Source: an uncultured Gammaproteobacteria bacterium (lineage in GTDB: Bacteria; Patescibacteriota; Patescibacteriia; Magasanikbacterales; GWA2-37-8). From it: DNA of 64,000 nucleotides. The stretch spans positions 1,015,723 to 1,079,722 of the forward strand of contig CAZQUL010000001.1 in assembly GCA_964596525.1 (NCBI GenBank). The letters are read 5' to 3'. Below, piece by piece: positions 41,054 to 58,976 of this stretch. The notes below the pieces were generated by a model that was not told the DNA's origin, made no database searches, and saw only the letters and a program-made list of their open reading frames with translations. Every line of letters begins with the position of its first letter. The first letter of the stretch is position 1. The translations under genes were made by a program, and so were the position numbers.

Positions 41054-42134
41054 ATCCGATCTTTACGGGGCTATGCTCCGCTCTTCCTCACGTATAAAAC
41101 GAAAAGTTCCCAAACGGCGGCGGTGGCATCAATATTCTGGCGTAGTAACTCATGCCAAACCAAAACCTTTCGCCGCACCTTCGTGGCGCAGTCCGCGGAC
41201 GAAGTCTTTTTCGCGTTCGCGTTTTTCGGGCAAGAAACTTCTTTCGATGCTCAAGTATACGTTTATAACTTTATTTCTTTTAGCCTGGCTTTTGGTGCCG
41301 GTTTATCTGCCGTTTACTCGCCTTTCAGTAGTTTCTGTGGTTGGCGCTGAGGAGAACCAGGCGCTAATGGAACGCATCAGTGAGGCGGCAAAAAGTACAA
41401 TCACGCCCTCAAATTCCTTATTTCCGAGTAATAGTTACTTTATATTCAACCCCAGCCACACCCAGAACGAATTATCGGAAAAATTCTCTGAGCTTTCGCA
41501 GATAACCGTTGAGAAAAAATTTCCCAACAGCTTGGTTATTTCTATTCATCAAAAAACAGAATTATTCTCTTACCTTAGCGGAAAAAATATCCTTTTATTG
41601 GATCAAGAGGGGAGTCTTGTACGCACTGAGACCCTAGAGGATTCCCCGTCGCTCACCGCTCTTTCTGCTCTTTTTGAAAATCTTCCTAGCACCTCCACTA
41701 CGGTCTCCACTACTCCCTCTACAGAAATCGAAAATGTTTTGCGTAAAAATAAGGATTATGTCCGCATGTTACGTGTAAAATTTAAACACCCAGTACTTCT
41801 TGACTATCGTTTGGATCGTTACGCAACTTCCACCGCCTCGACAACTTCCTCAACTTCCTCGGCAGCAATTGTTCCGAAAAATGTTTTGGGACGGTTTTCC
41901 GAGTGGTTTGATGCCGCGCCAAGGCATTTTGGTGAACTTTTGGGTTGTGCTCTTGATAATGGAGCTTTTCCAAACCGTTTTATTTGTTTGTTTGAGCGCG
42001 AACCATGGCTGGTTTTAACTACCTCAGATATGGCAGTGGAAGATGCTGTGCAACTTATTAACAAAGTACGCACGGCCAGTTCGCCACAAGAGTACATCGA
42101 CATACGATTGCCCGGCCGTATTTATTGGAAGTAG
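41019..42134 (+). CDS. FtsQ/DivIB-like cell-division protein (basic cytoplasmic tail, TM, POTRA-like domain); the start may be the internal Met at 41073
   Basis: Basic N-tail, TM helix (YTFITLFLLAWLLVPVYL), POTRA-like LSVVSVVGAEENQALMERI ... ITVEKKFPNSLVISIHQK; low-complexity Ser/Thr linker. Confidence 0.4.
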   Translation: MGRIFRALFLRKSDLYGAMLRSSSRIKRKVPKRRRWHQYSGVVTHAKPKPFAAPSWRSPRTKSFSRSRFSGKKLLSMLKYTFITLFLLAWLLVPVYLPFTRLSVVSVVGAEENQALMERISEAAKSTITPSNSLFPSNSYFIFNPSHTQNELSEKFSELSQITVEKKFPNSLVISIHQKTELFSYLSGKNILLLDQEGSLVRTETLEDSPSLTALSALFENLPSTSTTVSTTPSTEIENVLRKNKDYVRMLRVKFKHPVLLDYRLDRYATSTASTTSSTSSAAIVPKNVLGRFSEWFDAAPRHFGELLGCALDNGAFPNRFICLFEREPWLVLTTSDMAVEDAVQLINKVRTASSPQEYIDIRLPGRIYWK

Positions 42135-42197
42135 TTGTTAAAGAAAGGGAACCTTCACATCCGTGCCGCTAAAGGCCGGTTTTAAAGGATAAAAAGA

Positions 42198-42225
42198 ATT
42201 GAGTATAATAACTCTTATACTCAAT
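42198..42225. promoter_or_regulatory. candidate dif-like Xer recombination site: perfect 11-6-11 palindrome ATTGAGTATAA-TAACTC-TTATACTCAAT
   Basis: 28-bp architecture identical to dif sites (two 11-bp recombinase arms around a 6-bp core); inner arm ends ATAA/TTAT as in E. coli dif (GGTGCGCATAA-TGTATA-TTATGTTAAAT); 70 bp upstream of the Xer-like gene, as for xerS/difSL and xerH/difH. Confidence 0.5.
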
Positions 42226-42294
42226 TATTATACGGGTTTATGGTATACTTACTGCACTTGAGCTGGGTGTTTATATGTTCTCCTCTTTTCACGT

Positions 42295-43236
42295 ATGATT
42301 TGCCTCGAACACTTAGATGATTATCTTCTTCATTTACAAGCCAATAATTTTTCACCTAAGACCGTCTATAATTACGAACGTGATTTACATACCTTTGAAA
42401 TGTTTTTGGCGCGTGAGCTTAAAAAACCATTCGCATCTTTAATTAAACCGGACCTCATTCGCTTTAAAGCTTATCTGGGATCGATAGACCGTAAAACGGC
42501 CCAGGACGCGTTTTCTGAGGGTCGGCTGAGTAGTTACTCAATAAATCGTATTTTGTCTGCCCTGCGGTCGTATATCAAGTTTTTGGATGATATGGGCATA
42601 CCAGCGCCATTTCCATCGACTGCAGTCAAGCTCCTTAAGACCGAAAAACATCAGCCGCGCGTACCGGAATTTAAGGAATTATTAGCCCTCCTTGAGGCGC
42701 CTGAGTACTTAGAATTAGAACCAGTTATTAAAGCGCGTAACCGTGCCATACTAGAAACGTTATTTGCGACTGGCATGCGTATTTCTGAACTTCTTTCGTT
42801 AAAAGTGCATCAATTAGACGGTACCGGCCGCATTTACATCATGGGCAAGGGTAAAAAGCAGCGGTTCGTGTACCTCACTCCTCGGGCAATGGATTTCCTA
42901 ACAAGATACCTCTCTATGCGAGGTAGTGAATCGGAAATGTTATTTGTCCCCTACCGTGGAAAAAACAACAGCGAAAAGAATAAGCACTTGTCGGCAAACT
43001 ATGTGCAGTATAAAATAAAACGTTACCGCGAGCTCCTGCGTATCAATATTCCGATCAGTGCCCATACGCTGCGCCACAGCTTTGCCACGTTTCTCGCTGA
43101 AAAAGGCGCCAATCCAGCAGCCATCCAAATCCTTCTTGGGCATGAGTCGCTTGATACGACGACACGGTACGTACATGCTTCCGACCGTTTTGCTGAAAAA
43201 ACCCACCACGAGCACCATCCTTTGTTTAAAAATTAA
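42295..43236 (+). CDS. tyrosine site-specific recombinase, XerC/XerD family
   Basis: N-terminal SAM-like core-binding domain (LDDYLLHLQANNFSPKTVYNYERDLHTF), catalytic RHxxR...Y: ARNRAILETLFATGMRISEL, HTLRHSFATFLAEKGANPAAIQILLGHESLDTTTRYVH. Confidence 0.85.
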   Translation: MICLEHLDDYLLHLQANNFSPKTVYNYERDLHTFEMFLARELKKPFASLIKPDLIRFKAYLGSIDRKTAQDAFSEGRLSSYSINRILSALRSYIKFLDDMGIPAPFPSTAVKLLKTEKHQPRVPEFKELLALLEAPEYLELEPVIKARNRAILETLFATGMRISELLSLKVHQLDGTGRIYIMGKGKKQRFVYLTPRAMDFLTRYLSMRGSESEMLFVPYRGKNNSEKNKHLSANYVQYKIKRYRELLRINIPISAHTLRHSFATFLAEKGANPAAIQILLGHESLDTTTRYVHASDRFAEKTHHEHHPLFKN

Positions 43237-43257
43237 CCTTATTCTTAAAAATCATCT

Positions 43258-45654
43258 ATGTTTTCCGAACATGGTCCGCATTTTGAAGCCCCGCCTGCTG
43301 CCAAAAAACCGGAGGAACAATCCCCGGCGCTCTCACGGCGCGAGGCGCTCAAAAAAATCGGCAAGGTTGCAGCGGTTGGTGCGGTAGCGGCTGTGGAGCT
43401 AAACATGCTCGGCGGGAAACATCGCGAAGATGCACATGAGTCAGTGGCGCAGGCTGAGAAGGCGCATGCTGAAGAAGAGGCTCGTCGCCGATTTGAACGG
43501 GTTAACATCACGTCTGCGGCTGCGGTGAGCGGGCTCTTCATGAACTGGGTACGCCGATGCGCTAAAGGTGATAGTTTTGGTCCCACATCGGCAATGCAAC
43601 TTAATACGGCAGAAGCGCTGCGCCTTGCGAGTTTGCGGACGCTTGGCGGAAAAGAAGGTGCTGAACTTGCCAAGGAAGAGTCTGATTCCATTTACCAATC
43701 GCTCGCGTTAGTGCCGCTGCTTATTACTGCATCGGATTTTACCGCGCGTTCCGTAGCCGTGCATCCCGAGAAAATCTTTAAAGAAGCCGAAGATATTATT
43801 GAGGGCACAAAGCGTGAAGAACAAAAGCGCCCGCCGCTTGAAGCGAGCCTCACGGAATGGCGCGAGTACCAAGCCGGAGTTGAAGAGCGCCTCATTACTG
43901 AAGTCGCAGAATTGAGCGCTCTCTCCACTGCCCTCTCCCCTTTTTTGACCACGTATACATCCTCGGCGGTCGTGAATAAACTCAAGGAGAATATCATGCA
44001 TCTTACATACGAGCAGTCAATGGCCAAAGAAATGACACGTCGCAAAGAATTTAGTGAATCGCAAGCGGAGGAAGAAGTTTTTGAACGAAGCCGAATTAGA
44101 ACGCAGGATCTTTTTGATGGAGGTTGGGGTTTTAATAACCTGCAAACTACACTCGCGGCTAATGTGCATGGCGGATTTCTCCTTGGCGACCCGCCGCAGA
44201 TTTACGGCTTTATGAAACACAAGAAAAACCTGCCACGGCTTGCCAAAGCAGAAGCTTTCGGTTTGGCGAACAGTGAACTTTCAACTCTTGCGCTTACCGC
44301 GGTGTGGTTTAAAAAAGCTGGAATACAGCCTAATAAGGAGTTCTTGGCAACGTATTTTAAAGCTCAAGCGCGCGTCTTGGGCGAACTGGCCAAGCTCCCC
44401 TACGATGGAGGTAAAAAAGCGCTCAAAGGAACGCTCGAAAAAGTTTTGCGTACCAAAGGAGGGGCTGTTGGCGAATCAATTGCTGAGGGTCTTGATAAAA
44501 CAGAAATCCCGGCCATCAATCTGAGCATGCGTGATTATGCCGGAAAAAAAGCCGCGCATATCAAACGGCTGAGCACGGTAACGAGCACTGAAGTGCAGCA
44601 GGTGCTTGAAAGCCTTCTTAAACGAGCTGAAGAAGGTGTTAAAAAGCAGCCGCTGAATAATTTTTTGACAGAAGTAGGAAACGGTAACTTATCCGGTGCA
44701 GCAGGGGCGAACGAGGAATTGAACTTGCCTTTGCCGGAACTTTCCGAAACAGTTTCTATAACGGAAAATCAAGCGAACGAAGACTATGCAGAAATGACTA
44801 TTGAAGATCCGGAGCTGGAAGAAAAGCTAAATACAGCCTTTGACGAAGGTAGTAAACAGGCCCGGGAAATGACTACACCAAGCACGTCGGCTCGATTGCT
44901 CGAATCGTTACCTCAGCGCGAACGCCGTCTGGTTGAAAACTATATGCGCGAACCATCCGGACACTCTGAGGCACGATCCCGGCAAGTGTGGAACGAAGTG
45001 AGCAGTGCTGTGACTGACGAAAAAAATCGTACTATCCTCGAAACGATGCTCGGTCTTAAAAAACCGGAATCTGAACATCATTCTGAACAATTCTTGAGCC
45101 ACTCCGCACAAGAAGTTTTGTGGGCGCTTGGTAGCCAAATTCCCTGTGTAGAAGCCTTAGCAGAAACCGTTAAGGCTGGTGTGGGAAAAGCTTTTGATCT
45201 GAAAAAGGGCGAACGTCCTTCGGTGAATAAAATGATGCTCGCGGTGGGAAGTGTGCTCACCTCGGAAGCGGTTATTTCTTCACTGGCGGATAATATTGCA
45301 GCGTACCTGTACGGCGAAAAAGTGCTTACTGATATGATGAAAACTGCTTACGGTGACGATGTGATGGAAAAACATCCGGGTTTGGCGGATGCGGTTTATA
45401 CGGCAACTCTTAAACTTGCCGAGCAGGCCGGGTCGTTGACCAAGTTTGGCAATGGGCCTAACTTTTCTCAGGAACGTTTGGTGGCGAGCGTGGGTGAAGA
45501 TAAAAAACTCAGCGTCGCGCGCGAGGCGATTCCCTTTAAAGGGTATGACAACAAGTTTGCGAATGTGGCTAATGCAGGCATGCTGGGCGCGGCGCTTATG
45601 CTCATTCGTAAAGAGCTTGTTCAGATTGATACAGCCAATAAAAAACGCCCATAA
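43258..45654 (+). CDS. large alpha-helical hypothetical protein (N-terminal TM anchor)
   Basis: 798-aa ORF, N-terminal hydrophobic segment IGKVAAVGAVAAVELNMLGG, Glu/Lys/Ala-rich helical composition, no recognisable catalytic motifs. Confidence 0.55.
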   Translation: MFSEHGPHFEAPPAAKKPEEQSPALSRREALKKIGKVAAVGAVAAVELNMLGGKHREDAHESVAQAEKAHAEEEARRRFERVNITSAAAVSGLFMNWVRRCAKGDSFGPTSAMQLNTAEALRLASLRTLGGKEGAELAKEESDSIYQSLALVPLLITASDFTARSVAVHPEKIFKEAEDIIEGTKREEQKRPPLEASLTEWREYQAGVEERLITEVAELSALSTALSPFLTTYTSSAVVNKLKENIMHLTYEQSMAKEMTRRKEFSESQAEEEVFERSRIRTQDLFDGGWGFNNLQTTLAANVHGGFLLGDPPQIYGFMKHKKNLPRLAKAEAFGLANSELSTLALTAVWFKKAGIQPNKEFLATYFKAQARVLGELAKLPYDGGKKALKGTLEKVLRTKGGAVGESIAEGLDKTEIPAINLSMRDYAGKKAAHIKRLSTVTSTEVQQVLESLLKRAEEGVKKQPLNNFLTEVGNGNLSGAAGANEELNLPLPELSETVSITENQANEDYAEMTIEDPELEEKLNTAFDEGSKQAREMTTPSTSARLLESLPQRERRLVENYMREPSGHSEARSRQVWNEVSSAVTDEKNRTILETMLGLKKPESEHHSEQFLSHSAQEVLWALGSQIPCVEALAETVKAGVGKAFDLKKGERPSVNKMMLAVGSVLTSEAVISSLADNIAAYLYGEKVLTDMMKTAYGDDVMEKHPGLADAVYTATLKLAEQAGSLTKFGNGPNFSQERLVASVGEDKKLSVAREAIPFKGYDNKFANVANAGMLGAALMLIRKELVQIDTANKKRP

Positions 45655-45664
45655 CAAAGAAGTG

Positions 45665-46084
45665 TTAGGGCGTGGCAGCGAAGAGTTCTTGGTGCAGGCG
45701 GAGCGCGCCTTTCTTACAGTGGGTAAGGCGGTTATCGCGCTCAAAGGCTTTGTCGAGAAGTGTGATAAGGAAGTGCCACACCAGTCGTTCCTCTGTAGTA
45801 AGATGCGGGAGAGAAAGGAGGCATTCTTCGACGATGATTTCGACGAAGAATTCTCCGTGAGAACTTCGCAGCAGGTTGAACAATGCCTGTTCCGCCTCGA
45901 AACAATTTAAGCCGTTGGAAAAAATCGTTGTTGAGGGCGTGTGCTGCAGAAGCGACAAAAGAGCGTCGCTGCTTTTTGCTTTTGCCCTCTCCGCCGAACG
46001 GAGGGAACTTTCCGCCATTTCTGCGGCAACGCGCGGATGGCAAGTTACTCCGCCCACAGGTGAAAATCGAGCGTCACTTTTCAT
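45665..46084 (-). CDS. hypothetical protein (strand assignment uncertain)
   Basis: 139-aa ORF convergent with the 798-aa gene; a competing plus-strand ORF 45446-45910 overlaps the upstream gene end and is less likely. Confidence 0.25.
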   Translation of the reverse strand: MKSDARFSPVGGVTCHPRVAAEMAESSLRSAERAKAKSSDALLSLLQHTPSTTIFSNGLNCFEAEQALFNLLRSSHGEFFVEIIVEECLLSLPHLTTEERLVWHFLITLLDKAFERDNRLTHCKKGALRLHQELFAATP

Positions 46085-46239
46085 GATTGCACCTCGCGCA
46101 TATTTCGGTAACAGTAAAGCGAGCAGTAAAATAAAGCCAGAAAACTGTTGAAAAGTACTGGTCTCCCCTATTTTTATTGACCTTTTAGTGGGCCAGATCT
46201 ACTCTAGATAATAGAGGGGGTATTAAATCTTTATATCTT

Positions 46240-46740
46240 ATGCATATGACAACACGGCATGCACTACTCCCCATAGCGGCGTTTTTCTGCTTACTTTTAG
46301 GGCAGGGTTGCGATCAGCCGATCGACTACCTTCCTTCGGGAGTGCAAACTTCAACACAGCAGTCACCTACGACATCGGGACCTCAAGGACCTTCTACGTC
46401 TGTACCAACAACTACGGCCCAGGGCAAGCGGTACCTTTTCCGCTCTCTTGATGAGTGCAGTCGGGCACGGTTTACATGCGAAGCCACCGAGCAGTACTTT
46501 GCCGATGCCCAGGGTTGTGGTTGCGAACCAAAAACAGCGTCTGAAGACACATTTTGTGCCGCTGTTTACCAACCAGTATGTGCAGAAATTGAAGTGCAAT
46601 GCGTCCGTGCGCCGTGTAATAATATCTTTCAGACTTTTGGGAACGAATGCGAGGCTCGCCGTACCGGGTTCAATATCAAACAACTTAAATCAGGTGAATG
46701 TCAGCCGTCTCCATCTACCCCTACGACGAGTGCCTCATAA
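46240..46740 (+). CDS. secreted Kazal-type serine-protease-inhibitor-domain protein with Ser/Thr/Pro-rich linker
   Basis: Signal peptide (LLPIAAFFCLLLGQGC); Kazal-like Cys pattern C-AAVYQPVC-AEIEVQC ... TFGNECEA; 12 Cys total. Confidence 0.5.
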   Translation: MHMTTRHALLPIAAFFCLLLGQGCDQPIDYLPSGVQTSTQQSPTTSGPQGPSTSVPTTTAQGKRYLFRSLDECSRARFTCEATEQYFADAQGCGCEPKTASEDTFCAAVYQPVCAEIEVQCVRAPCNNIFQTFGNECEARRTGFNIKQLKSGECQPSPSTPTTSAS

Positions 46741-46923
46741 ACAGATACGTGGATGAATTGGACTGGAATTACAAAAGCCCTTTCAATGGGGCTTTTGTAA
46801 TTATGATACCGATCTCGCAGAGGCTTGAGGTGTTCTATAAAAATCATTAACCCATAGAAAACTAGCATGAACCCAAAGAGCGCCGAGTATTTCAAGGTAA
46901 GAGAAATGTTCGGCAACACATGT

Positions 46924-48021
46924 TTAGGTAGAAACTTTATTACGCAATTGTCCGCATGCGGCCGCGATATCTTGCCCTTGCGAGTAACGCACTGTGACGG
47001 TGAAATCTTCTTTCATAAGCGTGTCGCGCCAATGTTCGATGCGCTCTGAGGGTGTGCGAGCGAAGACATCGATGTTGTTAACTTCGGCATCCGAGATACT
47101 GTTGTACGGGATGAGGTTGATACGGATGTAGGGCAGTTTTTTACCAAGATCGATGAGGGCTGCAAGGTGCCGATCATCGTCGTTAACGCCGCCGAGCATA
47201 ATGTATTCGAGCCCGAGGAAATGCGTGCGCGTGCCGAATCTTTCATGATACTCGTTCCCCCACTGTACGAGAAAATCCAAGAAGCCCGGCGCGTGCGAGG
47301 GCATGATGAATTTGCGACTTTCTTCGATAGCGCTGTGAAGGGAAAGAGCCCAGCGTACAGCCGGAAAATCAGGGTCCGTAAGCATCCGTTTCATACTCGG
47401 TACGACACCGGCAGTAGAGACGGTGATTTTGGTGGGACCGAGGTCGGTATTTTTGAGAAGAATATTTATGGCTTCTTTAACGTTGTCGTAGTTGAGAAGC
47501 GGTTCGCCCTGGCCCATGAAGACGATGTTGGCAACGCGGGCGCCTTCGGGGGTAAGCATGCGCTGCGCCAGGCGGTACTGATCGACGATTTCTTGCGCCG
47601 ACAGATTGCGCTTGAAGCCTTGCTTGCCGGTGGCGCAAAACGCGCATTTCATGGGGCAGCCAGCCTGGCACGAAACGCAGATAGTATAGCGATCCGGAGC
47701 GAGCTCGTCACTCTCCCCCACGCGCTTAAGATGCGCCTCCTGCTTTTTGGTTGGCCTGCCCATGATAACGAGCTCTACGTACTGGCCATCGGCGAGTTTA
47801 AGAAGCGCTTTGCGGGTATTGTCGAGATCGCTCTTGAGCATGGTGTGCACATCCACCGCGAGCCAAGGAATGTCTTTGAGCTCTTCGCGCAGTTCAAGTG
47901 GCAAGGTAGAGATATCAGAGTAACTCGAGAGAGACGTGTCAAACCAAGCCGTATGCACTTGCTTGGTGCGAAAGGCCGGAAGGTTTTTGAGAATGGTGGC
48001 GAGGCGTTGGTCGGAAGCCAT
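46924..48021 (-). CDS. rlmN: dual-specificity RNA methyltransferase RlmN (radical SAM, 23S rRNA A2503 / tRNA A37 C2-methylation)
   Basis: Radical-SAM CQAGCPMKCAFCATG, conserved second Cys pair, about 365 aa. Confidence 0.88.
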   Translation of the reverse strand: MASDQRLATILKNLPAFRTKQVHTAWFDTSLSSYSDISTLPLELREELKDIPWLAVDVHTMLKSDLDNTRKALLKLADGQYVELVIMGRPTKKQEAHLKRVGESDELAPDRYTICVSCQAGCPMKCAFCATGKQGFKRNLSAQEIVDQYRLAQRMLTPEGARVANIVFMGQGEPLLNYDNVKEAINILLKNTDLGPTKITVSTAGVVPSMKRMLTDPDFPAVRWALSLHSAIEESRKFIMPSHAPGFLDFLVQWGNEYHERFGTRTHFLGLEYIMLGGVNDDDRHLAALIDLGKKLPYIRINLIPYNSISDAEVNNIDVFARTPSERIEHWRDTLMKEDFTVTVRYSQGQDIAAACGQLRNKVST

Positions 48022-48023
48022 AC

Positions 48024-49787
48024 TTATTCGATAAATCCACCGGCCTGGAGTTTCCAGAGATCGGCATAGAGACCGCCTCGTTTGGTGAGATCGGCGTGGG
48101 TGCCGTCTTCGAGAAGTTTACCGTTTTTGAGGACAACGATACGGTCCATCTGCATGATGGTTGAGAGGCGGTGTGCAATGACGATAACGGTTTTACCGTC
48201 CATGACGTGATCGAGGGCGTCTTGGATAAGGTGTTCGGATTCGGAATCGAGGCTCGACGTTGCTTCGTCGAGAACGAGGATTGGGGCGTTGCGCAGAATC
48301 GCACGAGCGATAGCGATGCGCTGGCGTTCGCCACCTGAAAGTTTGAGGCCCCGCTCCCCTGCTACGGTAGAATATCCATCCGGAAGACGCGTAATAAATT
48401 CGTGGCAATGCGCGGCTTTGGCAGCAGCGATCACTTCGTCGTCGGAGGCATTCGGACGTCCGTAGCGAATATTCTCCATGATGGTGCGATGGAAGAGTAC
48501 CGGATCTTGAGGTACCAGGCTCACCATGTTCCAGAGGCTTTCCTGCGTGACGTCTTTTATATCCTGACCATCAATGATGATCGAGCCGTCATTAATATCG
48601 TACATGCGGAGTAAGAGTTTGATAAGGGTGCTTTTGCCCGAGCCGCTCGGTCCGACGAGTGCTACTTTCTCTCCTGGTTTGATGTCGAGTGAGAGGTTTT
48701 CGAACATGCTGCGTTTGCCGCTATAGTTGAACGTCACGTTCTTAAACTGTACACTGCCCTGCGTAACTGACAAAGCGCCGGCGTTCGGTGCATCCTGGAT
48801 TTCGTACGGGGTGAGCATGACGGCCGTCATTTCGCTCGCATCGGCCATAGCTTCGCTGAGGCGACGGATAACGCGACCAAAACCCCAAATTTCATTGACG
48901 AGGGTGATGACGTAGGCTTGGATAAGCACGAAATCACCAGTCGTGAGCCTCCCCTCTTGCCAGAGGCGGATAGCGCCGTAGAAAATGCCCAGTTCGAGCC
49001 CGATGACGAGGAGTCCTTGAACAGCTTCAAACACGCTGTTCAAATCCCAGCGGATACGCTGCAAGTTGCGCGCTTTGATGAGGAGGCCCTTGAAGGTGTC
49101 GGTTTCATGGCGTAACCCGTTAAATAGTTTGACGTTGGCATTGTTCGTGACCGTATCGGCCAAGTGACCGGAGACTTTTGAATCGGCTTCGTTATGGGCA
49201 ATGTCGTAGCGCGACTTGAGGCGGCTGAGCCACCAGTTAATAGCAAGAAAGACCACGACCCAGACCACGATAACTACACCGAGAACAGCAGCGCGACGGC
49301 TGAGTACTACACTGACCATAATAATATTCACGAGAAGCGGGATGAGCGTGAAGAACATTTGGTCCATGATGAGACTGAACGCGCCGACGAACCGGTTCAC
49401 GCGCTTGACGAGCGAACCGACGAAATTATTGTTAAAAAAGGCAAAGGAATGCCGGTGTAATACCGAAAAACAGGTGACGTAAAGATCCACTGTAATACCG
49501 GTTTCGAGCCGGGTGCTGAGGATATCGACGATACGCTGGATGAGCCAGTTGGCCAGCGAAATAACGCCGATAATGACGAGAATGTGTACCAAAACATCGC
49601 GGGCAGCAGCCAGAGACAGACCCGGCTCAGCTAAAACATCAAAGAACTTCTTATAGTAAAGGGCGGGAATATTGCGTGAAATTGTGCCTAACGTTACAGC
49701 AGCAATAAGCCCAGCCATGCCAAGACGGTAAGCTTTGATGTGTTTGAGATATGTGAGTGCTGTTTGTTTGATGGTGGCGTGCTGCAT
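48024..49787 (-). CDS. ABC transporter, fused permease/ATP-binding exporter (MsbA/type I exporter family)
   Basis: 6-TM N-domain; NBD with Walker A GPSGSGKST, signature LSGGERQRIAIARA, Walker B ILVLDEATS. Confidence 0.88.
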   Translation of the reverse strand: MQHATIKQTALTYLKHIKAYRLGMAGLIAAVTLGTISRNIPALYYKKFFDVLAEPGLSLAAARDVLVHILVIIGVISLANWLIQRIVDILSTRLETGITVDLYVTCFSVLHRHSFAFFNNNFVGSLVKRVNRFVGAFSLIMDQMFFTLIPLLVNIIMVSVVLSRRAAVLGVVIVVWVVVFLAINWWLSRLKSRYDIAHNEADSKVSGHLADTVTNNANVKLFNGLRHETDTFKGLLIKARNLQRIRWDLNSVFEAVQGLLVIGLELGIFYGAIRLWQEGRLTTGDFVLIQAYVITLVNEIWGFGRVIRRLSEAMADASEMTAVMLTPYEIQDAPNAGALSVTQGSVQFKNVTFNYSGKRSMFENLSLDIKPGEKVALVGPSGSGKSTLIKLLLRMYDINDGSIIIDGQDIKDVTQESLWNMVSLVPQDPVLFHRTIMENIRYGRPNASDDEVIAAAKAAHCHEFITRLPDGYSTVAGERGLKLSGGERQRIAIARAILRNAPILVLDEATSSLDSESEHLIQDALDHVMDGKTVIVIAHRLSTIMQMDRIVVLKNGKLLEDGTHADLTKRGGLYADLWKLQAGGFIE

Positions 49788-49961
49788 ACAACGTCTCCAC
49801 TACATAAAAATTCCTGGGTTAGGAACAGCTCAGTCTAGCATTTTAGAAGAGAAATGTCAACTTTGAACCTTGTTTTAGCCTATTCCATGATATGATTGAC
49901 TACATGGCGATACTGTGCTAGAAGACCAAATGGGAAAAATTCCTCAAGGAACGGAGGGTCT

Positions 49962-51275
49962 ATGCGCCACGCACGCATTCTCTACGCTTTTTTGGGTTTC
50001 TGCGGGCTTACACAGCTTAATTGTGGTCCTGCCGACACGTTTTCTTCTGCTGCGCCCGCAGATAACTTTGAAACCCTTTTTAGGAGTCCGTCGCTCGTAA
50101 CGGCGCGCGGTCATGTGCGAAGCTTTACCGGCTTCCGTGGCAATGACGTAATTACCGGCGACGAGATCATCAAGGAGGTTCTTACGTTTTACGATCCGAC
50201 CGATGCCTCACCGGCAGCACTGGATCGGCTCGTAGCGTACTGGGATAAGTTTACCCGCTTCGAAGCGAGCTACGGAGTCGGGCCAGGCGATATCGAAGTG
50301 CTTAACGGTATGCCGACCATCCTCTACCTCATGAAGGTCGCGCATACGCTTAAGGTGTATGGTAGCGGGGAAATTCCCTGGGCTCTTGAGAGTATCTCGG
50401 ACCAAGCATTTGCCTGGTATTTTTGGGAGATGCTGATCTCTCGCTGGCTGCTGCACGAAAGTGAAGTTCCAAAAATTCCTGTCGGCTTTCCGACGTTTGT
50501 GAGCGGATTTATGCTCGGGGATGAGGTGTATGCCAAGGATCTGCGCGTCAAGTTTGCCAACCTTATCACCAGCTGGCGCATCTGCCGCAACCTTCTTCGT
50601 CAACCACCGCCTGGGTCCAAACGGGCTGCAACGAGTGAAGAATTCGCAGCTCACATCATCCAGTGGGTAAAGAATAATCTCGCATACAGTGTAGCGCGTA
50701 CAAGCCAAGAAGTGGATCTAGTCAACGCCTCAAACAACATTGATACCATCATCACATCCCACGAAAGCGGTGCGAGAGACAAGATGATGGCAACCTCGAT
50801 TCAGTATCTTCTGGGCGCCGCGGGTATTCCGGTAGTAAAGTTCTTTAAGGAAGAAGATGTGCTCCAGCTCGACATGCATCTTTACATGCCGGGTGCGGAG
50901 CGCTACATTCTCCCCGCCGCTGTGTCCCGCTTTCCGGCTCTTCCGAGCCGTTACGCGCTTATGCCGCTGTGGGTAATCGCAGAGGGCTCTACACAGCCGA
51001 CCCCGTATCTGGTGCGGTATCTGGGACCAAGCTCGACGCTCTGGAAAACCATAGTCACCGGGGTTCGTTACCCCAAGATTGAAGATAGCTACCTGACTGT
51101 GTGGTTCACAGACATCGTCATGGAACCGCGTATTACATCCACCGAGGTCGAGAAATTGCGTGCGGAGTTCCCTTCCTTTAATCTCATGGTCAATGATGAC
51201 TTCCACCTGCGCTCTGGCCATGTTACCCTGAAAACAGCGTTTGAGCTTGGGGAGCCTTCCGCCAAGCTTTGGTAA
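49962..51275 (+). CDS. secreted hypothetical protein
   Basis: Start moved to MRHARILYAFLGFCGLTQLNCG preceded by GGAGGG RBS; signal-like N-terminus; no known motifs. Confidence 0.5.
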   Translation: MRHARILYAFLGFCGLTQLNCGPADTFSSAAPADNFETLFRSPSLVTARGHVRSFTGFRGNDVITGDEIIKEVLTFYDPTDASPAALDRLVAYWDKFTRFEASYGVGPGDIEVLNGMPTILYLMKVAHTLKVYGSGEIPWALESISDQAFAWYFWEMLISRWLLHESEVPKIPVGFPTFVSGFMLGDEVYAKDLRVKFANLITSWRICRNLLRQPPPGSKRAATSEEFAAHIIQWVKNNLAYSVARTSQEVDLVNASNNIDTIITSHESGARDKMMATSIQYLLGAAGIPVVKFFKEEDVLQLDMHLYMPGAERYILPAAVSRFPALPSRYALMPLWVIAEGSTQPTPYLVRYLGPSSTLWKTIVTGVRYPKIEDSYLTVWFTDIVMEPRITSTEVEKLRAEFPSFNLMVNDDFHLRSGHVTLKTAFELGEPSAKLW

Positions 51276-51371
51276 AAAAATTTTGAGCCCTGCCTAATCC
51301 GCAGGGTTTTATCATTTCAGTTCAAGGTGCATAAACAAAACAACGACCTTACAGCCGTTATTTTGCGTTTG

Positions 51372-51443
51372 TACCGCCAAGGGGAATCGAACCCCTATTA
51401 CTGCCGTGAGAGGGCAATGTCCTAGCCGTTAGACGATGGCGGC
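51372..51443 (-). tRNA. tRNA-Glu (anticodon CTC), CCA not encoded
   Basis: Manual fold of the reverse complement: acceptor GCCGCCA/TGGCGGT (G1-U72 wobble), D-arm GTCT-AACGGCTA-GGAC, anticodon arm TTGCC-CTCTCAC-GGCAG (U33, CTC, A37), 4-nt variable loop, T-arm AGGGG-TTCGATT-CCCCT, discriminator A. Confidence 0.7.
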
Positions 51444-51494
51444 GTGTTCATAGGACGTAGCCTAGAGTAGTAAAAAAGAGGCCCGTCGTCAAGT

Positions 51495-53303
51495 TTAATT
51501 CGGGCCGGATTTGCGCTCCGGAGCAAAACCAAGGTACTCAAGCGTGAAACGCATGATGTCGCGGAATACCGGACCAGTAGTGGTCTCGGCATAGAGGGCG
51601 GTACTTGTATTGCTCACGTTGCCGTATTTGATAAGCAATACGACCCGAGGAGTGCTCGCGGGTGCAAAGCCGACGATGGTGTGGTTGGTTGGTCCGGTAT
51701 TCACGTCGAAATAGCCACCTTCCGGGTTGGCGATTTGGGCTGTACCGGTTTTGCCGGCCACGTAGTACTGCTCGAGGCGCGTGGTTTTTTTGTATGAGTC
51801 GAGCGTGGCGACGAGCATGCCGGTCGTGATTTTGGCGGCGCGCTCCGAAAGGACGGTATCCACTACTTCAGGCGTAGATTTTTCCACTTCACCAGCTTTA
51901 TTTCTCCATTCTTCCACAATCAGCGGACGCATAAGCTTGCCTCCGTTCGCAATTGTGCTATAGGCCAAAGCAATCTGGAGCGGAGTAGCCGTCATACCTT
52001 GACCAAACGAAGTGTACGCAGCATTAGCAATATCGCGCTTGCCAAACGTCGGCAAAAGGCCGGCCGCCTCCGTATTAAGGGTAATACCTGTTTTTTCGCC
52101 GAAACCGAACTTATCGAGGTAGGTTTTAAAACGCGTCGGCGTGAGTTGTTCTGCCACCCAAATAGCCCCGGTATTGATGGATTTTTGCAAGACCTCCGTC
52201 ATGGTAACACGACCATAGCAGCGCAGGTTAGCATTGTAGATAGTGAAGGGTCCAAACGTACGCTTGCACGGGTCGGTAATGGCGGTTTCCGGGGTAACGA
52301 GACCGCTGTCGAGCGCACTCGCCATGGTAACGGTTTTCATGACCGAACCAGGTTCGTAGGGAATGAAGACGTTCTGATTGTTGAAGAAAGCAGTGCTTGA
52401 TGTTTTGCCGTAATCATTAGGGTCGAAATCCGGAAAACTGCACATGGCCATAATTTTGCCCGTAGTGGGATCCATCATAATAAGCGAGGCGTCGAGCGCT
52501 CCCCACCCCCGCATCCCCTGCTCAAGGCGTTTACAGGCCTCAAACTGGAGCGTGCGGTCGATAGTGAGAACCACGTCCGTACCATGTTCGGCCGGGACCA
52601 CGGTGCGCCCAGCAAGCGTGATCCAGATTCCACCCGCGCTTTTTTCACCGGCAACAAATCCAGGTTTACCGCCTAATTTATCTTGCCAGTATCCTTCGAT
52701 GCCGTAACGGCCTTGGCACACCCCTCGCTCATCACGCGCGCAAAAACCAATTACTGCGGCTGCAAAACGCCCTTCTGGATAAAAGCGGTAGTCTTGGGGA
52801 GCCGTAAAAATACCCGATATTTTGGCGCGTACGATGGTGTCGGCAACTTCACTAGAAACTTTATGCGCAATGTTCTGGTAGCCCAAATCACGGCGACTCA
52901 AACGCATTCCTAGTTCGCGTTCACGCTCGGCCGAGAAGCCCAGCTGTTTGCGCAAAAATGCCGTAGTAGAAACAACATCCGAAGGGTTCATGATGCGCGG
53001 AGAGGCATAGACCTCGTAATATTCGCGGTTGATGGCAATAGGAAAACGTTCGCCACTGCGGACATCTTGGGCAAAAATACGACCTCGATCGGCATGGATT
53101 TTTTTGTATAGTTCGTGCGAATGAGATGCGAGAGCAGCGTAGACTTCGTGGCGCAAGACTTGAATAACAAAAAGACGGACCGTCAAATAAGCGGCCAGAA
53201 GCAAAAAAACCATGGCGAGCGTGCGGATCTCACGGCCTTCTTTGGGGCGAGCGTGCGAACGAGCCAGACCGATAGCTTGAGCGAAAGAGCGGCGGCGACG
53301 CAT
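51495..53303 (-). CDS. penicillin-binding protein, class B (FtsI/PBP3-like peptidoglycan transpeptidase)
   Basis: N-terminal TM, dimerisation domain, transpeptidase motifs SVMKT (SxxK), KTGTAQ, SGN-like; second class-B PBP in the window. Confidence 0.8.
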   Translation of the reverse strand: MRRRRSFAQAIGLARSHARPKEGREIRTLAMVFLLLAAYLTVRLFVIQVLRHEVYAALASHSHELYKKIHADRGRIFAQDVRSGERFPIAINREYYEVYASPRIMNPSDVVSTTAFLRKQLGFSAERERELGMRLSRRDLGYQNIAHKVSSEVADTIVRAKISGIFTAPQDYRFYPEGRFAAAVIGFCARDERGVCQGRYGIEGYWQDKLGGKPGFVAGEKSAGGIWITLAGRTVVPAEHGTDVVLTIDRTLQFEACKRLEQGMRGWGALDASLIMMDPTTGKIMAMCSFPDFDPNDYGKTSSTAFFNNQNVFIPYEPGSVMKTVTMASALDSGLVTPETAITDPCKRTFGPFTIYNANLRCYGRVTMTEVLQKSINTGAIWVAEQLTPTRFKTYLDKFGFGEKTGITLNTEAAGLLPTFGKRDIANAAYTSFGQGMTATPLQIALAYSTIANGGKLMRPLIVEEWRNKAGEVEKSTPEVVDTVLSERAAKITTGMLVATLDSYKKTTRLEQYYVAGKTGTAQIANPEGGYFDVNTGPTNHTIVGFAPASTPRVVLLIKYGNVSNTSTALYAETTTGPVFRDIMRFTLEYLGFAPERKSGPN

Positions 53304-53309
53304 ACATGA

Positions 53310-54035
53310 TCAGGAACGAAGAAGTGCGGCGTGCTTAGTAAAAATCTTCTCACGGGCCGCGTGGTATTTTTTTATGCCAGAAAACGGCAAGGCGTGCCGG
53401 ATGAACCAGCTCGGAAACCAAGAGCTGATACCGCTGCGCAAACCGACGATTTTACGATATCTGCTACCGGGCACATAAATGCCGGTTTTCCCCATAGAAA
53501 GCAGCGTAAGCCAGAGATCCCAGTCTTGGAAACGACGCAGGTTTTCATCGAAACCGGGAAAATCAGCGCGGCGAATGAGACTCGTCATGTCGATGTAGTT
53601 GCAGCGTTTAAGCATTGTAGCATCAAACGGGCGGCTTGGCATAGCTTTCCAGCCATACTGATAATCGGCGTAGGCATAACTCGCGCGAGGATTTTTCTCC
53701 AGCGCTTCAACATAGCGAGCGATAAACGCGGGCGGAGCAAGCGTATCCGCATCCCAAAATAGTACATACTCACCCTTACTCGCTTCAAATCCGGTAGTGC
53801 GTGCGACTGCCGCACCGCGGTTAGTGCACGTAATCCATACGCACAAAAGCCCGGCGGCGTTCAGGAGATTTTTTACTTCTTCTCGATCTGCTTCGACGCC
53901 ATCGGTACTGCCGTCGTTGACAATGATTACTTCGAGCGGGCGATACGCTTGCGCGACAAGCGAACCGAGCGAACGCTTGAGGGCCCGACGGTGGTTAAAA
54001 ACCGGGATAATTACGCTCACGAGGGGACGCGGCAT
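53310..54035 (-). CDS. glycosyltransferase family 2
   Basis: Start moved to the Met at 54035 (MPRPLVSVIIPVFNH), which abuts the upstream gene stop at 54043; GT2 motifs VIIPVFN ... IVNDGSTDG ... DAD. Confidence 0.75.
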   Translation of the reverse strand: MPRPLVSVIIPVFNHRRALKRSLGSLVAQAYRPLEVIIVNDGSTDGVEADREEVKNLLNAAGLLCVWITCTNRGAAVARTTGFEASKGEYVLFWDADTLAPPAFIARYVEALEKNPRASYAYADYQYGWKAMPSRPFDATMLKRCNYIDMTSLIRRADFPGFDENLRRFQDWDLWLTLLSMGKTGIYVPGSRYRKIVGLRSGISSWFPSWFIRHALPFSGIKKYHAAREKIFTKHAALLRS

Positions 54036-54042
54036 ACTCCCT

Positions 54043-55176
54043 TTAAGTTTTGAGGCGAGAAATAAGCCCTTCGATTTGGGTTTTCCAACGCAGATTTTCG
54101 AGTACACGGGCGCGGCCGGCAGCTCCAAGGGTTTTGGCATATTCCGGCATGGCAAGAAGGTCGACGACGGTGCGAACGACTTCTTTGGGTTGGCGCGGGT
54201 CAACCAGAACGCCGGTTTCGAGGTGGCGCACGGCTTCGTCCACTCCCCCACCCCGGCCGGCAACAACTGGCAGACGAGCAGCTGCGGCCTCAATAAAGAC
54301 CATACCCCATCCATCAACGCTGTCGGCAGTCGGAATGGTGAGTGAAATAAAGATGTCGGATAACGCGTAAAATAACCGCAGACGCTCAGCCGGAACCGAG
54401 CCTAAAAAGCGGATTGAGGACTCGACTTTTAATTCGCGAGCGCGGCGCATGAGCTGGTTCTCAAGAGGGCCCGTGCCGATGATGAGCCACACGAGCTGCG
54501 GAACCTTAGCCAGAAGCTCAGGCATCATTTCCAAAAAGAAACGATGGCCTTTACTTTCGATGATGCGCCCTACGGTCAGCACGACTTTTTTAGAGGAAAG
54601 TCCGAGACGTTCGCGGAAATTTTGTACCGCCTCGGCATCCGGCTCGTTGTCGATAAAGGTGTCGGTTGGGCACGGATGAACGATGAGCGGTGTTGGGAGC
54701 GATGGAATTTTTTCACGCAGGCGTGAGGCCGTAAACTGGCTGTTTACAACAAGGTTTCTGGCATCTTTGAGGACAAAGGAAAGTTTGCGGCGTTTTGCTT
54801 CTCCGACTACAAGTATGTCGGTACCATGAAGAAAGGCGGTGTAGGGAATTTTAAAAATTTTTTTGATGAACCAGGTAACGTACCCAACGGGTAAAGCATG
54901 ATGAATAAAGATGTGCTCGATTTTTTCGCGGCGCGCAACGCGGCAGAGCTCAAACGCAAACCAGAGCCAATGCGGCCACATCCATTGGATGAACGGCGCG
55001 AAGCGATACACTTTCCACGCATGGCGGCTATCGACGAATTCATCTTGCCCGCCTTGGCGCGGGGCGTACACCACGGTTTCGTGATATTTTGAATACTCTT
55101 CGATGAAGTTGGTGATATATGAAGCAATCCCGCCGATTTGGGGAGGATATTCGAGAGTGACGATGAGGGTTTTCAT
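54043..55176 (-). CDS. glycosyltransferase family 1 (GT4-like)
   Basis: EYPPQIGGIASY N-domain, C-terminal GT1 motif region (EAAAARLPVVAGRGGGVDE). Confidence 0.8.
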   Translation of the reverse strand: MKTLIVTLEYPPQIGGIASYITNFIEEYSKYHETVVYAPRQGGQDEFVDSRHAWKVYRFAPFIQWMWPHWLWFAFELCRVARREKIEHIFIHHALPVGYVTWFIKKIFKIPYTAFLHGTDILVVGEAKRRKLSFVLKDARNLVVNSQFTASRLREKIPSLPTPLIVHPCPTDTFIDNEPDAEAVQNFRERLGLSSKKVVLTVGRIIESKGHRFFLEMMPELLAKVPQLVWLIIGTGPLENQLMRRARELKVESSIRFLGSVPAERLRLFYALSDIFISLTIPTADSVDGWGMVFIEAAAARLPVVAGRGGGVDEAVRHLETGVLVDPRQPKEVVRTVVDLLAMPEYAKTLGAAGRARVLENLRWKTQIEGLISRLKT

Positions 55177-55198
55177 AGGCAGAACGGATATTCGTGAT

Positions 55199-56650
55199 TC
55201 AGCGTGGCATGATCTCCTTCACACGGGAACTAAGAGCAGACCATCTTAGAATCCCGGTGAGGCAGAGTAGAATGCCATATACAACCCCTCCTAGACACGG
55301 AATAATAACGAGCGGTACGGGCGTGGCAAGAAGAGCTAGCACGGCAAGCCCCATTACTAAACCAGAGAAAACTATCTTACCTGAAACGATATAAAGTGTC
55401 TTGTCCGGGGTGTGGATGACCTTGCGGATAAGAATATAACCTGTAATCCAAAGGAGGATATTGCTGAAAATAGCTGTTATAGCCGCTCCTCGGGTGCCAA
55501 GAGTAGGGATAAGAAGCGCATTGCCAATAACGCTCGACACCAGAGCTAAACCGTACAACGCGGTTTGGGTGCGCTGTCGGCCGATACCGTTGAGAATGGC
55601 ACCGTGGGCATACCCGAGAAAACCGGGCAAGAGGCTCCATACCAATACCTTAAAAATCGCCGCGGCGGGCAAAAATTGCGGCACGAAGCGCGCAAAAAAC
55701 GGCGTGATGACCGCGCTGCCGCCAATAACGATAGGAATCCCGACGAGGAACAAGAAACGATACGACTTGATAATAAGAGCGCTCAACGCCTCATGGGAGC
55801 GATGGAACTCGCGAGCGATGAGTGGGAACAAGCTAGCCCCCAAAGCGATAGGGATGAACTGAAAAGCGTATACTGCCTTGTAGGCTCGCGCCCAGTGCCC
55901 TCCGTCTTCTTCGGGCAAGAGTTTCTTGATGAAAAAAGCATCTTGATAGGCATACAGCTGCATAAGAAGGCCGCCGACCGCGAAGGGCCAGGCGCGCACG
56001 GCAAACTCCCTCAGCACGAGATGCAGGCTCTGCCACGCAGGAAAAACCAAACGCAGGCTATAGCGGGTCTGTACGCACCACCAGGCATACGCAGTATGAC
56101 CTACGCTAGCCAAAAGTGCCGCTACGATAAGAAAAAGAAACGGCAGGCGGCCTACCAAGGCAATAGCGCCGAAACCAGCTAAAAGCACCTGCCCCAGGGC
56201 CACGCCGATAGATTCATAAAAAACGTTCGATTGACTGCGCGCTACAGCGTAAAAGACGGAGCGTACACTGTCGCTTATAACGATGATGGCCGCAAAGACG
56301 ATGATGCATGCGCTGTCTCCAGGATAATCAAAGATGTAATTAACACCCGTAAGAACCACCCCGGCAACAATGCCTAAAATAACTTTTATCAGAAGAACGA
56401 TGGATACATCTTCGTCAGGCGGCACTTCGTGCCGAGAGAGTTTTTGGGTGAGCGCAGTGGTAAGACCGCTATCGGCGATGACAGTGAAAATGGCGAGTGA
56501 CACGAAGATGTGAAAGTAACGGGCTGTTTCCACGGTGCCGATAACCCAGCTGACAGCAAAAAAATATAACGCCGAAATGCTCTTTTGGACAATAGAGGCA
56601 ACACTTAAGAATGTGGTGTTGTGAGCCAAAGAAAAAACCCGCGCTTTCAT
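55199..56650 (-). CDS. polysaccharide biosynthesis protein / oligosaccharide flippase (Wzx-like, MOP superfamily)
   Basis: 483 aa, about 12-14 TM helices, MOP-flippase-like layout; adjacent to two glycosyltransferases. Confidence 0.65.
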   Translation of the reverse strand: MKARVFSLAHNTTFLSVASIVQKSISALYFFAVSWVIGTVETARYFHIFVSLAIFTVIADSGLTTALTQKLSRHEVPPDEDVSIVLLIKVILGIVAGVVLTGVNYIFDYPGDSACIIVFAAIIVISDSVRSVFYAVARSQSNVFYESIGVALGQVLLAGFGAIALVGRLPFLFLIVAALLASVGHTAYAWWCVQTRYSLRLVFPAWQSLHLVLREFAVRAWPFAVGGLLMQLYAYQDAFFIKKLLPEEDGGHWARAYKAVYAFQFIPIALGASLFPLIAREFHRSHEALSALIIKSYRFLFLVGIPIVIGGSAVITPFFARFVPQFLPAAAIFKVLVWSLLPGFLGYAHGAILNGIGRQRTQTALYGLALVSSVIGNALLIPTLGTRGAAITAIFSNILLWITGYILIRKVIHTPDKTLYIVSGKIVFSGLVMGLAVLALLATPVPLVIIPCLGGVVYGILLCLTGILRWSALSSRVKEIMPR

Positions 56651-56688
56651 ACCGTTATACTATATGAAACGTGCGGTCTGGGCATAGT

Positions 56689-57195
56689 TCATTCTTTAAA
56701 ACCCGACAAACCTTCGAGTGTCAAAAGTGTCCGTTTGGCGCTTAAGCCGCCAGCGAATCCTGTAAGCTTGCCGTGCGAACTGACAACTCGGTGACACGGA
56801 ATGATGATGGAAAAAGGATTGAGTGCAATCGAACGGGCTACGGCCCGCACAGCTTTCGGTGCTCCAATCCGTCGTGCGATTTCGGCATATGAAACAACCT
56901 GACCATAAGGAATTTTGCGTAATTCTTGCCATACGTTTTTCTGAAACTCAGATCCGCGCATGTCGAGCGGCACTGTAAAGGCTGTTGCCGAGGGACGCAA
57001 GAAAAAACCGACGAGCTGTTCCTCCAGTTGGTCGAGATATTCATGGTCTCCGGGCGAAAGAATTTCAGTGCGCTTAAAAAGTGGACGCGGGTCCTCTTTG
57101 CCCCACAAAATCGCCCGAATACCCTCCGTGCTGGCCACCAACCGCAGCGGTCCAACCGGGTACAACGCGTCACGATAAACGTAGGTTTGAATCAT
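56689..57195 (-). CDS. ogt: methylated-DNA--protein-cysteine methyltransferase
   Basis: Active site IPCHRVV, N-terminal Ada/Ogt domain, HTH region. Confidence 0.85.
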   Translation of the reverse strand: MIQTYVYRDALYPVGPLRLVASTEGIRAILWGKEDPRPLFKRTEILSPGDHEYLDQLEEQLVGFFLRPSATAFTVPLDMRGSEFQKNVWQELRKIPYGQVVSYAEIARRIGAPKAVRAVARSIALNPFSIIIPCHRVVSSHGKLTGFAGGLSAKRTLLTLEGLSGFKE

Positions 57196-57203
57196 AAAAA
57201 TAA

Positions 57204-58235: not shown

Positions 58236-58373
58236 ACATGATAGGCACCTTTGAGCCTATCATAAATCGCTTATTTTGGCCAGTTTTAAGGCCGAACAAG
58301 GCCTTGACATACAAGGCAGCATCCGCTATGCTGACCCATTCGACCTTTTTAACAAACGATACTAAGGAGTTCT

Positions 58374-58799: not shown

Positions 58800-58976
58800 C
58801 TGCTTTTTATTTTCGTCATTGCGAGGAAGGAGTAAGACGACTGACGAAGCCCGTCCGCCATGGCGGAGAGGTGTGCCGGGCGGGCTATCCCCTTGATATC
58901 AAAGTGAGCTCTGAAATACTGAGGGATTGCTTCGTCGTTCCTCCTCGCAATAACCGCTCTTGTATGCCTCCTTTCT

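Follow-up and report, generated by a model that had tools for sequence, protein, structure and literature searches.

A probable dif site adjoining its recombinase gene and flanked by converging AGGGGA motifs in genomes of the Patescibacteria

The 64,000-nucleotide stretch of contig CAZQUL010000001.1 analysed here (assembly GCA_964596525.1, positions 1,015,723 to 1,079,722; the whole stretch is hereafter termed the window) carries a 28-bp dif-type site directly in front of xer, the gene coding for a Xer-group tyrosine recombinase (Table 1). Tblastn searches and gene calls show that the local gene order matches that of the nearest relatives, with serS, alr, a gene for an FtsQ-like protein, the site, xer and a small open reading frame (ORF) followed by rlmN and an ABC transporter on the opposite strand, and gene orientation switches at the site. 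The site is composed of a left arm, ATTGAGTATAA (42198-42208), a centre, TAACTC (42209-42214), and a right arm, TTATACTCAAT (42215-42225), the 11-6-11 architecture with inner arm ends ATAA and TTAT that characterises dif-type sites. The arms are perfectly complementary, exactly as reported in an initial annotation of this DNA, and the dyad extends by one further base on either side (12-6-12, 42197-42226). The site begins 63 nt beyond the stop codon of the upstream gene and ends 69 nt ahead of the ATG of the xer ORF, so that the closeness given in the initial annotation holds and its value of 70 bp does not. Judged by sequence and conservation, the 28-mer is very likely the dif site of a Patescibacteria (Candidate Phyla Radiation (CPR), Magasanikbacteria-like) genome, and the gene 69 nt downstream would code for the recombinase acting on it. 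This role, already proposed in the initial annotation, is supported by the linkage of site and xer when approached from either of the two, by a fall of GC skew across the site in 64 of 67 related loci and by the convergence of a polar hexamer, AGGGGA, on the site.

Palindromy by itself is unconvincing, as the window contains 35 pairs of inverted repeats of at least 10 nt, several of them perfect and terminator-like. The 28-mer is present in a single copy in the window, even when up to three mismatches are allowed, and none of 100 shuffles yielded a match. A genome set of 80 loci was assembled from species representatives with recombinases 57-71% identical to the window Xer, and in 76 of these the same 28-mer occurs upstream of xer (up to four mismatches over 18 core positions, mostly just one), generally 11-65 nt before the start of the gene. 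When the metagenome loci described below are included, the distance is mostly 11-90 nt. This retention in front of an orthologous gene, despite the limited identity of the recombinases, places the 28-mer far above chance. The consensus across the family is AYTGAGTATAA-TAWCYC-TTACACTCART, with an information content that is near-maximal in the arms, high in the centre and collapses beyond positions 0-29 (28-30 bp). A metagenome set (at least 120 stretches) was obtained by scanning contigs with the arms only; the invariance of its arms is therefore given by construction, and the genome set represents the fairer sample. Among the matches listed, the centre is of the same type in 106 stretches. 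An xer orthologue starts within 1 kb in 84 of them, while the flank is mostly too short to judge in the remaining 22. The site is oriented as xer in 69 of the listed metagenome loci and opposite to it in 15, and no contig is found twice among the stretches listed, including contigs of 908, 882 and 847 kb. Strong copies (up to two mismatches) likewise number one per related locus, the extra matches in six loci having three or four mismatches.

Variation in the arrangement was observed in a small number of loci. One lineage carries a slightly altered inverted form of the site, GAGTATTA GAGATA TTATACTC. In locus L236 an inserted gene for an HNH endonuclease (9487-9984) separates the dif site (9445-9472) from xer (10001). 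In loci L040 and L045 a site with a degenerate right arm, ACTGAGTATAA TATCCC AAACGCTCAGT, occurs unusually far (approximately 510-600 nt) upstream of xer and may be decaying or remodelled.

At a replication terminus the top strand is expected to pass from G-rich to C-rich, whatever the direction in which the locus is drawn. In the 5.5-kb flanks of the genome loci the skew was higher on the left than on the right in 52 of 55 cases, changing from positive to negative in 33 and from negative to positive in one (mean +0.088 left and -0.051 right; p = 3.7e-10). When the relatives were binned at 500 bp, the mean skew dropped at the very position of the site, from +0.124 to -0.098, with values of +0.06 to +0.10 further out on the left and -0.03 to -0.07 on the right, and the maximum of the cumulative skew lay at a median of 1 nt from the site centre. 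The flip was replicated in metagenome loci that had been selected through the DNA motif and were left in native orientation, where left exceeded right in 18 of 18 among the matches listed (14 positive to negative, none the reverse). The pooled loci amount to 64 of 67 with higher skew on the left, 45 with a change from positive to negative and one with the reverse. The site marks a switch in chromosome polarity, and in AT-rich relatives this point coincides with the GC-skew terminus.

The flanks of the sites in relatives, oriented towards the site, were further searched for words with a strand bias beyond that expected from base composition. AGGGGA was found 794 times pointing towards the site and 82 times away from it, where 66% would be expected from composition (p = 3e-67), and longer words are more polar still (towards:away, TAGGGGA 262:10, GTAGGGGA 111:1 and AGGGGAGT 99:1). 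The bias is similar in co-directional genes (436:34), head-on genes (246:27) and intergenic DNA (108:21), and most copies lie within genes. An origin of the bias in Shine-Dalgarno sequences or codon usage was considered and rejected on these grounds. The polarity reverses within 200 nt of the site, from 36:4 just before it to 3:32 just after, the density of the motif rises towards the site, and the polarity is maintained in GC-rich relatives (144:28). In the window itself, the fields to the left and right of the site differ in the strand on which AGGGGA is found (Fisher p = 3.7e-5; Table 1). The first copies on the right (42947, 43936 and 44396) are antisense within genes of the + strand, and the polarity of this field opposes both the local GC skew and the orientation of the genes.

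Polar sequences that orient FtsK are familiar from other bacteria, namely KOPS in Escherichia coli and SRS in Bacillus subtilis, and AGGGGA behaves like a sequence of this kind, which would be read by the gamma domain of FtsK. The presence of FtsK in the same window, pointed out in the initial annotation, was borne out in the form of a C-terminal fragment with the motor and gamma domains. This protein is presumed to act as the translocase, recognising the polar motif and activating Xer.

Table 1. Positions of the site, the recombinase gene and associated features in the window, and of similar sites in viral contigs (numbered in their own loci)
Feature	Position	Strand	Basis or remarks
28-bp dif-type site	42198-42225	.	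Read directly in the window sequence
xer, 313-aa Xer-group tyrosine recombinase, presumed enzyme at the site	42295-43236	+	Pfam PF02899 and PF00589
Left AGGGGA field	6662-41613	+	26 copies on +, 2 on -; last copy 41608
Right AGGGGA field	42947-58893	-	9 copies on -, 3 on +
FtsK, C-terminal part (motor and gamma domain), cut by the window start	2-1078	+	PF01580 180.7 bits, PF09397 93.7 bits
Promoter-like element	42181-42209	+	-35 TTTAAA 42181-42186, -10 TATAAT 42204-42209; consensus scan, 10/12, pattern match only
Upstream neighbour, 295 aa as called on an identical Logan contig	41247-42134	+	Gene calls, tblastn synteny
Levivirus look-alikes (L083, L087, L092, L093, L096-L100, L103, L104, L106, L107, L111)	e.g. 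L092 1768-1795; L106 1074-1101		
Tailed-phage sites (L086; also L084, L085, L095, L110, L116, L164; and L112)	L086 8417-8444; L112 13303-13330		

Several observations weigh against the identification of the site as dif and terminus. The window shows no skew flip at 42.2 kb (+0.012 left, +0.052 right), its cumulative skew climbs between 6 and 64 kb without peaking at the site, and the skew at third codon positions is likewise devoid of a terminus-type flip. The counts of site and xer copies cover 64 kb of a genome of approximately 1.34 Mb. A few canonical or near-canonical sites are located away from xer (L224, L231 and L233), so that linkage is the rule and is not obligatory. Finally, AGGGGA could be some other strand-polar signal, a Chi-like site being the main alternative. 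Among the sites distant from xer, that of L233 (at approximately 8054 of the locus, on a 241-kb contig) has no xer nearby and lies at a strong skew flip, from +0.205 to -0.168.

The skew switch near the site that the initial annotation had put forward as a check thus fails in the window, for both the total and the third-position skew, while it is seen in the relatives. The size of the flip, however, falls steeply with rising GC content across the 67 loci (Spearman -0.75, p = 3e-13), the mean difference between left and right being 0.22 below 36% GC, 0.11 at 40-44% and 0.03 at 48% and above, and the window has a GC content of 49%. Two close relatives with recombinases 72-73% identical to that of the window both follow this trend, with a change from +0.092 to -0.078 at 36% GC and from +0.079 to +0.014 at 43%. 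As the flip vanishes with rising GC throughout the family, GC skew is uninformative for the window genome and does not speak against a terminus. The missing flip appears to be compositional, and the GC trend explains it better than a split between the effects of replication and transcription; the third-position skew of single genes suggests a G-rich + strand on both sides, with a scatter from gene to gene too large for firmness. For the family, the position of the terminus is well supported; in the window genome it is motif polarity and gene orientation, not GC skew, that point to it. The skew of the window is in addition heterogeneous, being strong on the + strand at 8750-16000 (total up to +0.19, third-position +0.13 to +0.39, whatever the strand of the gene) and, in contrast, near zero at 24-44 kb. 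The minimum of the cumulative GC skew is found at 6023, within the gene for a 1884-amino-acid protein (3093-8747).

The product of xer combines the N-terminal SAM-like domain with the catalytic domain of tyrosine recombinases. Residues R162, K185, H257, R260, H283 and Y292 are invariant across 30 orthologues and align with the catalytic residues of XerD. Homologues are plentiful and are labelled as Patescibacteria, Magasanikbacteria or Parcubacteria. The protein scores below the cut-offs of all four NCBIfam models compared, with 200.5 bits for XerC (TIGR02224, cut-off 335.15), 189.1 bits for XerD (TIGR02225, 329.6), 175.9 bits for XerA (NF040815, 220) and 94.5 bits for XerS (NF003462, 267), the last match covering the C-terminal half alone. 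The nearest solved structures are those of XerD (1a0p and 5dcf; E. coli XerD) and of Pyrococcus XerA (4a8e), and XerH (5jjv) is more distant (E = 9.5e-15, compared to 1.7e-23 for XerD). By these sequence comparisons, the window Xer is XerC/D/A-like and neither XerS nor XerH. The XerD residues RQ..QQ have been described as needed for contact with FtsK gamma (PMC5357621), and the corresponding positions in the alignment of the window Xer to XerD read EK..HE. A search of all six-frame ORFs with hmmsearch revealed no further Xer-family ORF in the window, in agreement with the initial annotation.

It is unlikely that the site is used by two recombinases of the XerC and XerD type, with the second gene located beyond the window. 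Such an arrangement would fit the family scores, of which those for XerC and XerD are the best, as well as an asymmetry in the arms, where A at left-arm position 8 faces a non-complementary C in 149 of 178 sites (84%), and the view is limited to 64 kb of the genome. The fully symmetric form seen in the window belongs to a minority of 28 of the 178 sites. The arms are nevertheless almost identical, whereas those bound by XerC and XerD differ markedly from each other (PMC3025954). The variable outer position of the arms has changed symmetrically in 128 sites as opposed to on one side only in 37, and this joint change fits one protein species reading both arms. There is, moreover, no second Xer ORF within the 64 kb of the window, and tight linkage of gene and site is a reported hallmark of single-recombinase systems (PMC5357621). 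In the initial annotation the perfect symmetry of the site was taken to fit a single recombinase; the symmetry of the window copy is confirmed and the co-variation of the arms agrees with one protein, while symmetry does not hold as a rule for the family, most sites being mismatched. The window genome would thus appear to employ a single recombinase.

The promoter-like element upstream of xer (Table 1) is probably the xer promoter. Its -10 hexamer is located within the site, at the junction of left arm and centre, and bound Xer would accordingly cover the promoter. In the Komeilibacteria/Parcubacteria-type loci L015 and L018-L035 the junction of site and promoter is conserved in another way, with a perfect TTGACA adjoining the 3' side of the right arm at a distance of 45-62 nt from the start of xer. 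Autoregulation of xer through occupancy of the site is plausible on the basis of these sequences. A more far-reaching alternative would be that the palindrome is an operator only, through which Xer or another dimeric regulator controls transcription of xer and at which no recombination takes place. The overlap with a promoter-like element in the window, the perfect TTGACA abutting the site in many relatives and the location of nearly all sites within approximately 100 nt of the xer start speak for such a role. It is improbable nonetheless. GC skew and a genome-wide polar motif reverse at this point, which is not where an operator would be expected. The site may also face either way with respect to xer (69 loci same and 15 opposite among the matches listed), and some sites are 0.5-1.7 kb from xer or have no xer nearby, and still lie at a skew flip (L233). 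The asymmetric centre is furthermore conserved in the manner of a crossover region, and autoregulation is compatible with dif function rather than an alternative to it.

The window copy of the site can be folded into a 12-bp hairpin (-12.2 kcal/mol, z = -3.0) 63 nt past the upstream stop codon, which could suggest an RNA or DNA hairpin acting as the intrinsic terminator of the upstream gene or as a structural element. This is very improbable, as the stem is AT-rich and not followed by a T-run, the terminator scan made no call and no Rfam family was matched. The stem would also contain an internal A-C mismatch in 149 of the 178 homologous sites, and the sequence of the arms and of the putative loop is conserved, not pairing alone. 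Conservation of both mismatch and loop, along with the missing T-run, argues against a terminator or RNA hairpin in spite of the foldable window copy. The reading that a mobile element or DNA switch uses the site for attachment or inversion, with xer as its integrase, can be dismissed with similar confidence: tyrosine recombinase genes beside their own sites are typical of such elements and a few phage contigs bear identical arms, but the chromosomal neighbourhood (serS, alr, the ftsQ-like gene, the site and xer) has been retained across classes, each locus has a single copy without a partner site, the site keeps its position at the skew and polarity switch, and the phage sites are missing in related phages.

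Viral contigs were also scanned for the site, which gave 32 matches. The largest family consists of IMG/VR contigs of approximately 4.5 kb with ATTGAGTATAA-TTRTAA-TTATACTCAAT, the arms of which are identical to those in the window. These contigs were considered as elements exploiting Xer and rejected, since they belong to single-stranded RNA leviviruses encoding a maturation protein and an RNA replicase, with the motif located in the maturation-protein gene. The motif is presumably a conserved RNA hairpin, and as such it can be no substrate for Xer and the likeness is a coincidence; it represents a trap for host prediction based on motifs. Two lineages of tailed phages carry ACTGAGTATAA-TGACYA-TTATACTCAGT between genes, in the gap that immediately precedes those for the large terminase and the portal protein. 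These sites have perfect dif arms of the CPR type and a centre in agreement at four of six positions. No xer is encoded on these tailed-phage contigs, the site is missing in related phages (loci L238-L242), including three with terminases 65-69% identical, and by a rough estimate perfect hairpins would match by chance in non-negligible numbers in so large a collection. The tailed-phage site may serve for attachment by way of the host Xer, or may have arisen by chance.

Among the known systems, classical XerCD/dif shares with the present case a 28-bp site with ATAA and TTAT ends, a location at the skew switch (seen here in the relatives), a G-rich leading-strand motif pointing towards dif and FtsK gamma, and XerC and XerD give the best family scores of the window Xer. 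It differs in that the window has near-identical arms and a gene linked to its site, the scores fall far below the equivalog cut-offs and the polar motif is AGGGGA rather than the GGGNAGGG of the classical XerCD/FtsK/KOPS system. Against reference sequences taken from PMC3025954 and PMC2958812, the window site is identical to E. coli dif at 17 of 28 positions and to B. subtilis dif at 15 of 28. The apparent use of one recombinase on a near-perfect 11-6-11 palindrome is shared with archaeal XerA/dif (Cortez 2010, PMC2958812), and the Pyrococcus abyssi dif, ATTGGATATAA-TCGGCC-TTATATCTAAA, is identical to the window site at 18 of 28 positions (left arm 9/11, right arm 7/11). The archaeal dif does not, however, adjoin xerA and is independent of FtsK (PMC2958812), whereas the window has a gene-linked site, an FtsK with a gamma domain and a converging polar motif, and the XerA score of its recombinase is below 220.

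The initial annotation had likened the locus to XerS/difSL and XerH/difH. The linked arrangement is indeed similar, while the protein and site families do not agree in scores, centre length or arms. XerS/difSL of streptococci and lactococci (Le Bourgeois 2007, PMC1914069; PMC5357621) has a single recombinase gene adjoining the site, and forms a terminus module that depends on FtsK, which is guided by a short polar motif. XerS is, however, a protein of 356 amino acids from another subfamily, compared to 313 in the window Xer (94.5 against a cut-off of 267 on NF003462), and difSL is 31 bp long with an 11-bp centre and unrelated arms, compared to 28 bp and a 6-bp centre here. XerH/difH of Helicobacter and Campylobacter (PMC3325230, PMC5241119) likewise has a single recombinase, a site near the gene and the involvement of FtsK; XerH, at 354-362 amino acids, is longer than the 313-residue window Xer and more distant, and the difH arms AGTTATGAAAA and AAAAGTTTGA (quoted in PMC5357621) are unrelated in sequence to those of the window. 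In the accessible part of its description, XerL/dif of the Legionellales (Nicholson 2022, PMC9765430) is a comparable case of a lineage-specific single-recombinase dif system that had been missed earlier, its dif having been discovered through a mobile element that mimics the site. This likeness is one of description alone, and no comparable mobile element is established for the locus studied here.

Smyshlyaev 2021 (PMC8138268) describes a 'Cand' subgroup that unites Xer-related recombinases of unclassified candidate phyla; the context is a discussion of taxa in which recombinases specific to a class may replace Xer. The window Xer very probably falls in this subgroup, and the taxonomy of its homologues is in agreement. 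The work classifies proteins only and gives no site, linkage, terminus position or polar motif. Sequence comparison would thus characterise the system in the window as a hybrid, with a site of classical or archaeal type, apparently one recombinase, a linkage resembling that of XerS and an FtsK and polar-motif architecture resembling that of XerCD.

A course of events at the site can be proposed by combining these features. Two Xer monomers would bind the two near-identical 11-bp arms, as suggested by the dyad and by the concerted changes of the arms across lineages. After replication, septal FtsK would translocate along the DNA, oriented by AGGGGA from both sides, the motif probably being read by its gamma domain. 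Once the sister sites of a chromosome dimer meet, a tetramer of Xer would exchange strands at the borders of the 6-bp TAACTC, the asymmetry of this centre providing the direction, by analogy with XerCD, XerH and XerA. Occupancy of a site that overlaps or adjoins the promoter of xer would probably also allow Xer to limit its own synthesis.

The site-xer module also occurs in eight loci labelled as Dehalococcoidia or Chloroflexi (L053, L058, L059, L063, L068, L070, L073 and L080). In L059, which has a GC content of 47%, the site lies approximately 12 nt before xer at 6001; its neighbours DapF, LL-DAP aminotransferase, HflX and PorAB, together with the presence of a skew flip, make this locus look like part of a true Dehalococcoidia genome. 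The polarity of AGGGGA is weak in the loci with these labels (9:6, 4:3 and 5:3). The dif predictions of Kono 2011 for Dehalococcoides are quite different and poorly palindromic.

A large share of bacterial diversity belongs to the Patescibacteria, which are known almost entirely from metagenome assemblies. No paper was found in which dif or Xer sites are connected with Patescibacteria or with candidate phyla, and the motif is not in the table of 641 predicted dif sites (641 genomes) of Kono 2011. The 28-bp site precedes the same recombinase gene in considerably more than a hundred related genomes, yet a description of it for Patescibacteria seems never to have appeared. Nothing seems to have been published on chromosome dimer resolution in this group, and the finding fills this gap while being conceptually unsurprising. 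The balance of the evidence leans slightly towards a broader proposal, that an undescribed polarity system is common to the whole Patescibacteria radiation and to Dehalococcoidia-type Chloroflexota and comprises a single Xer, an archaeal-like 28-bp dif embedded at the promoter of the recombinase and AGGGGA as the sequence orienting FtsK. If this is true, the 28-mer and AGGGGA would constitute a marker of the terminus that needs sequence only and works in GC-rich members where GC skew fails, such as the window genome, and the published dif predictions for Dehalococcoides would be wrong. The 28-mer and polar hexamer could then serve as a simple check on the correctness and completeness of assemblies, for which GC skew alone is often too weak, and the recombinase and its site as a defined protein-DNA pair for experimenters. 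In evolutionary terms, the system would represent a form between archaeal XerA and bacterial XerCD/FtsK, and its presence in Dehalococcoidia bears on the proposed kinship of that group with the Patescibacteria.

Several features of the surrounding genes deserve mention. The window copy of the upstream neighbour has no Pfam match, and its orthologue in L234 has a POTRA_1 domain of the FtsQ type. A 798-amino-acid ORF (43258-45654, + strand) with no family match lies between xer and a 166-amino-acid ORF; it is absent from the closest relative, L234, which is otherwise syntenic, and thus represents an insertion right beside the site. This insert holds two copies of AGGGGA that are already in the 'correct' (antisense) polarity. 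The 1884-amino-acid protein, encoded on the + strand, combines alpha-2-macroglobulin domains with a HINT/intein-like segment at residues ~1107-1237, where matches to PT-HINT, Vint and Intein_splicing are found.

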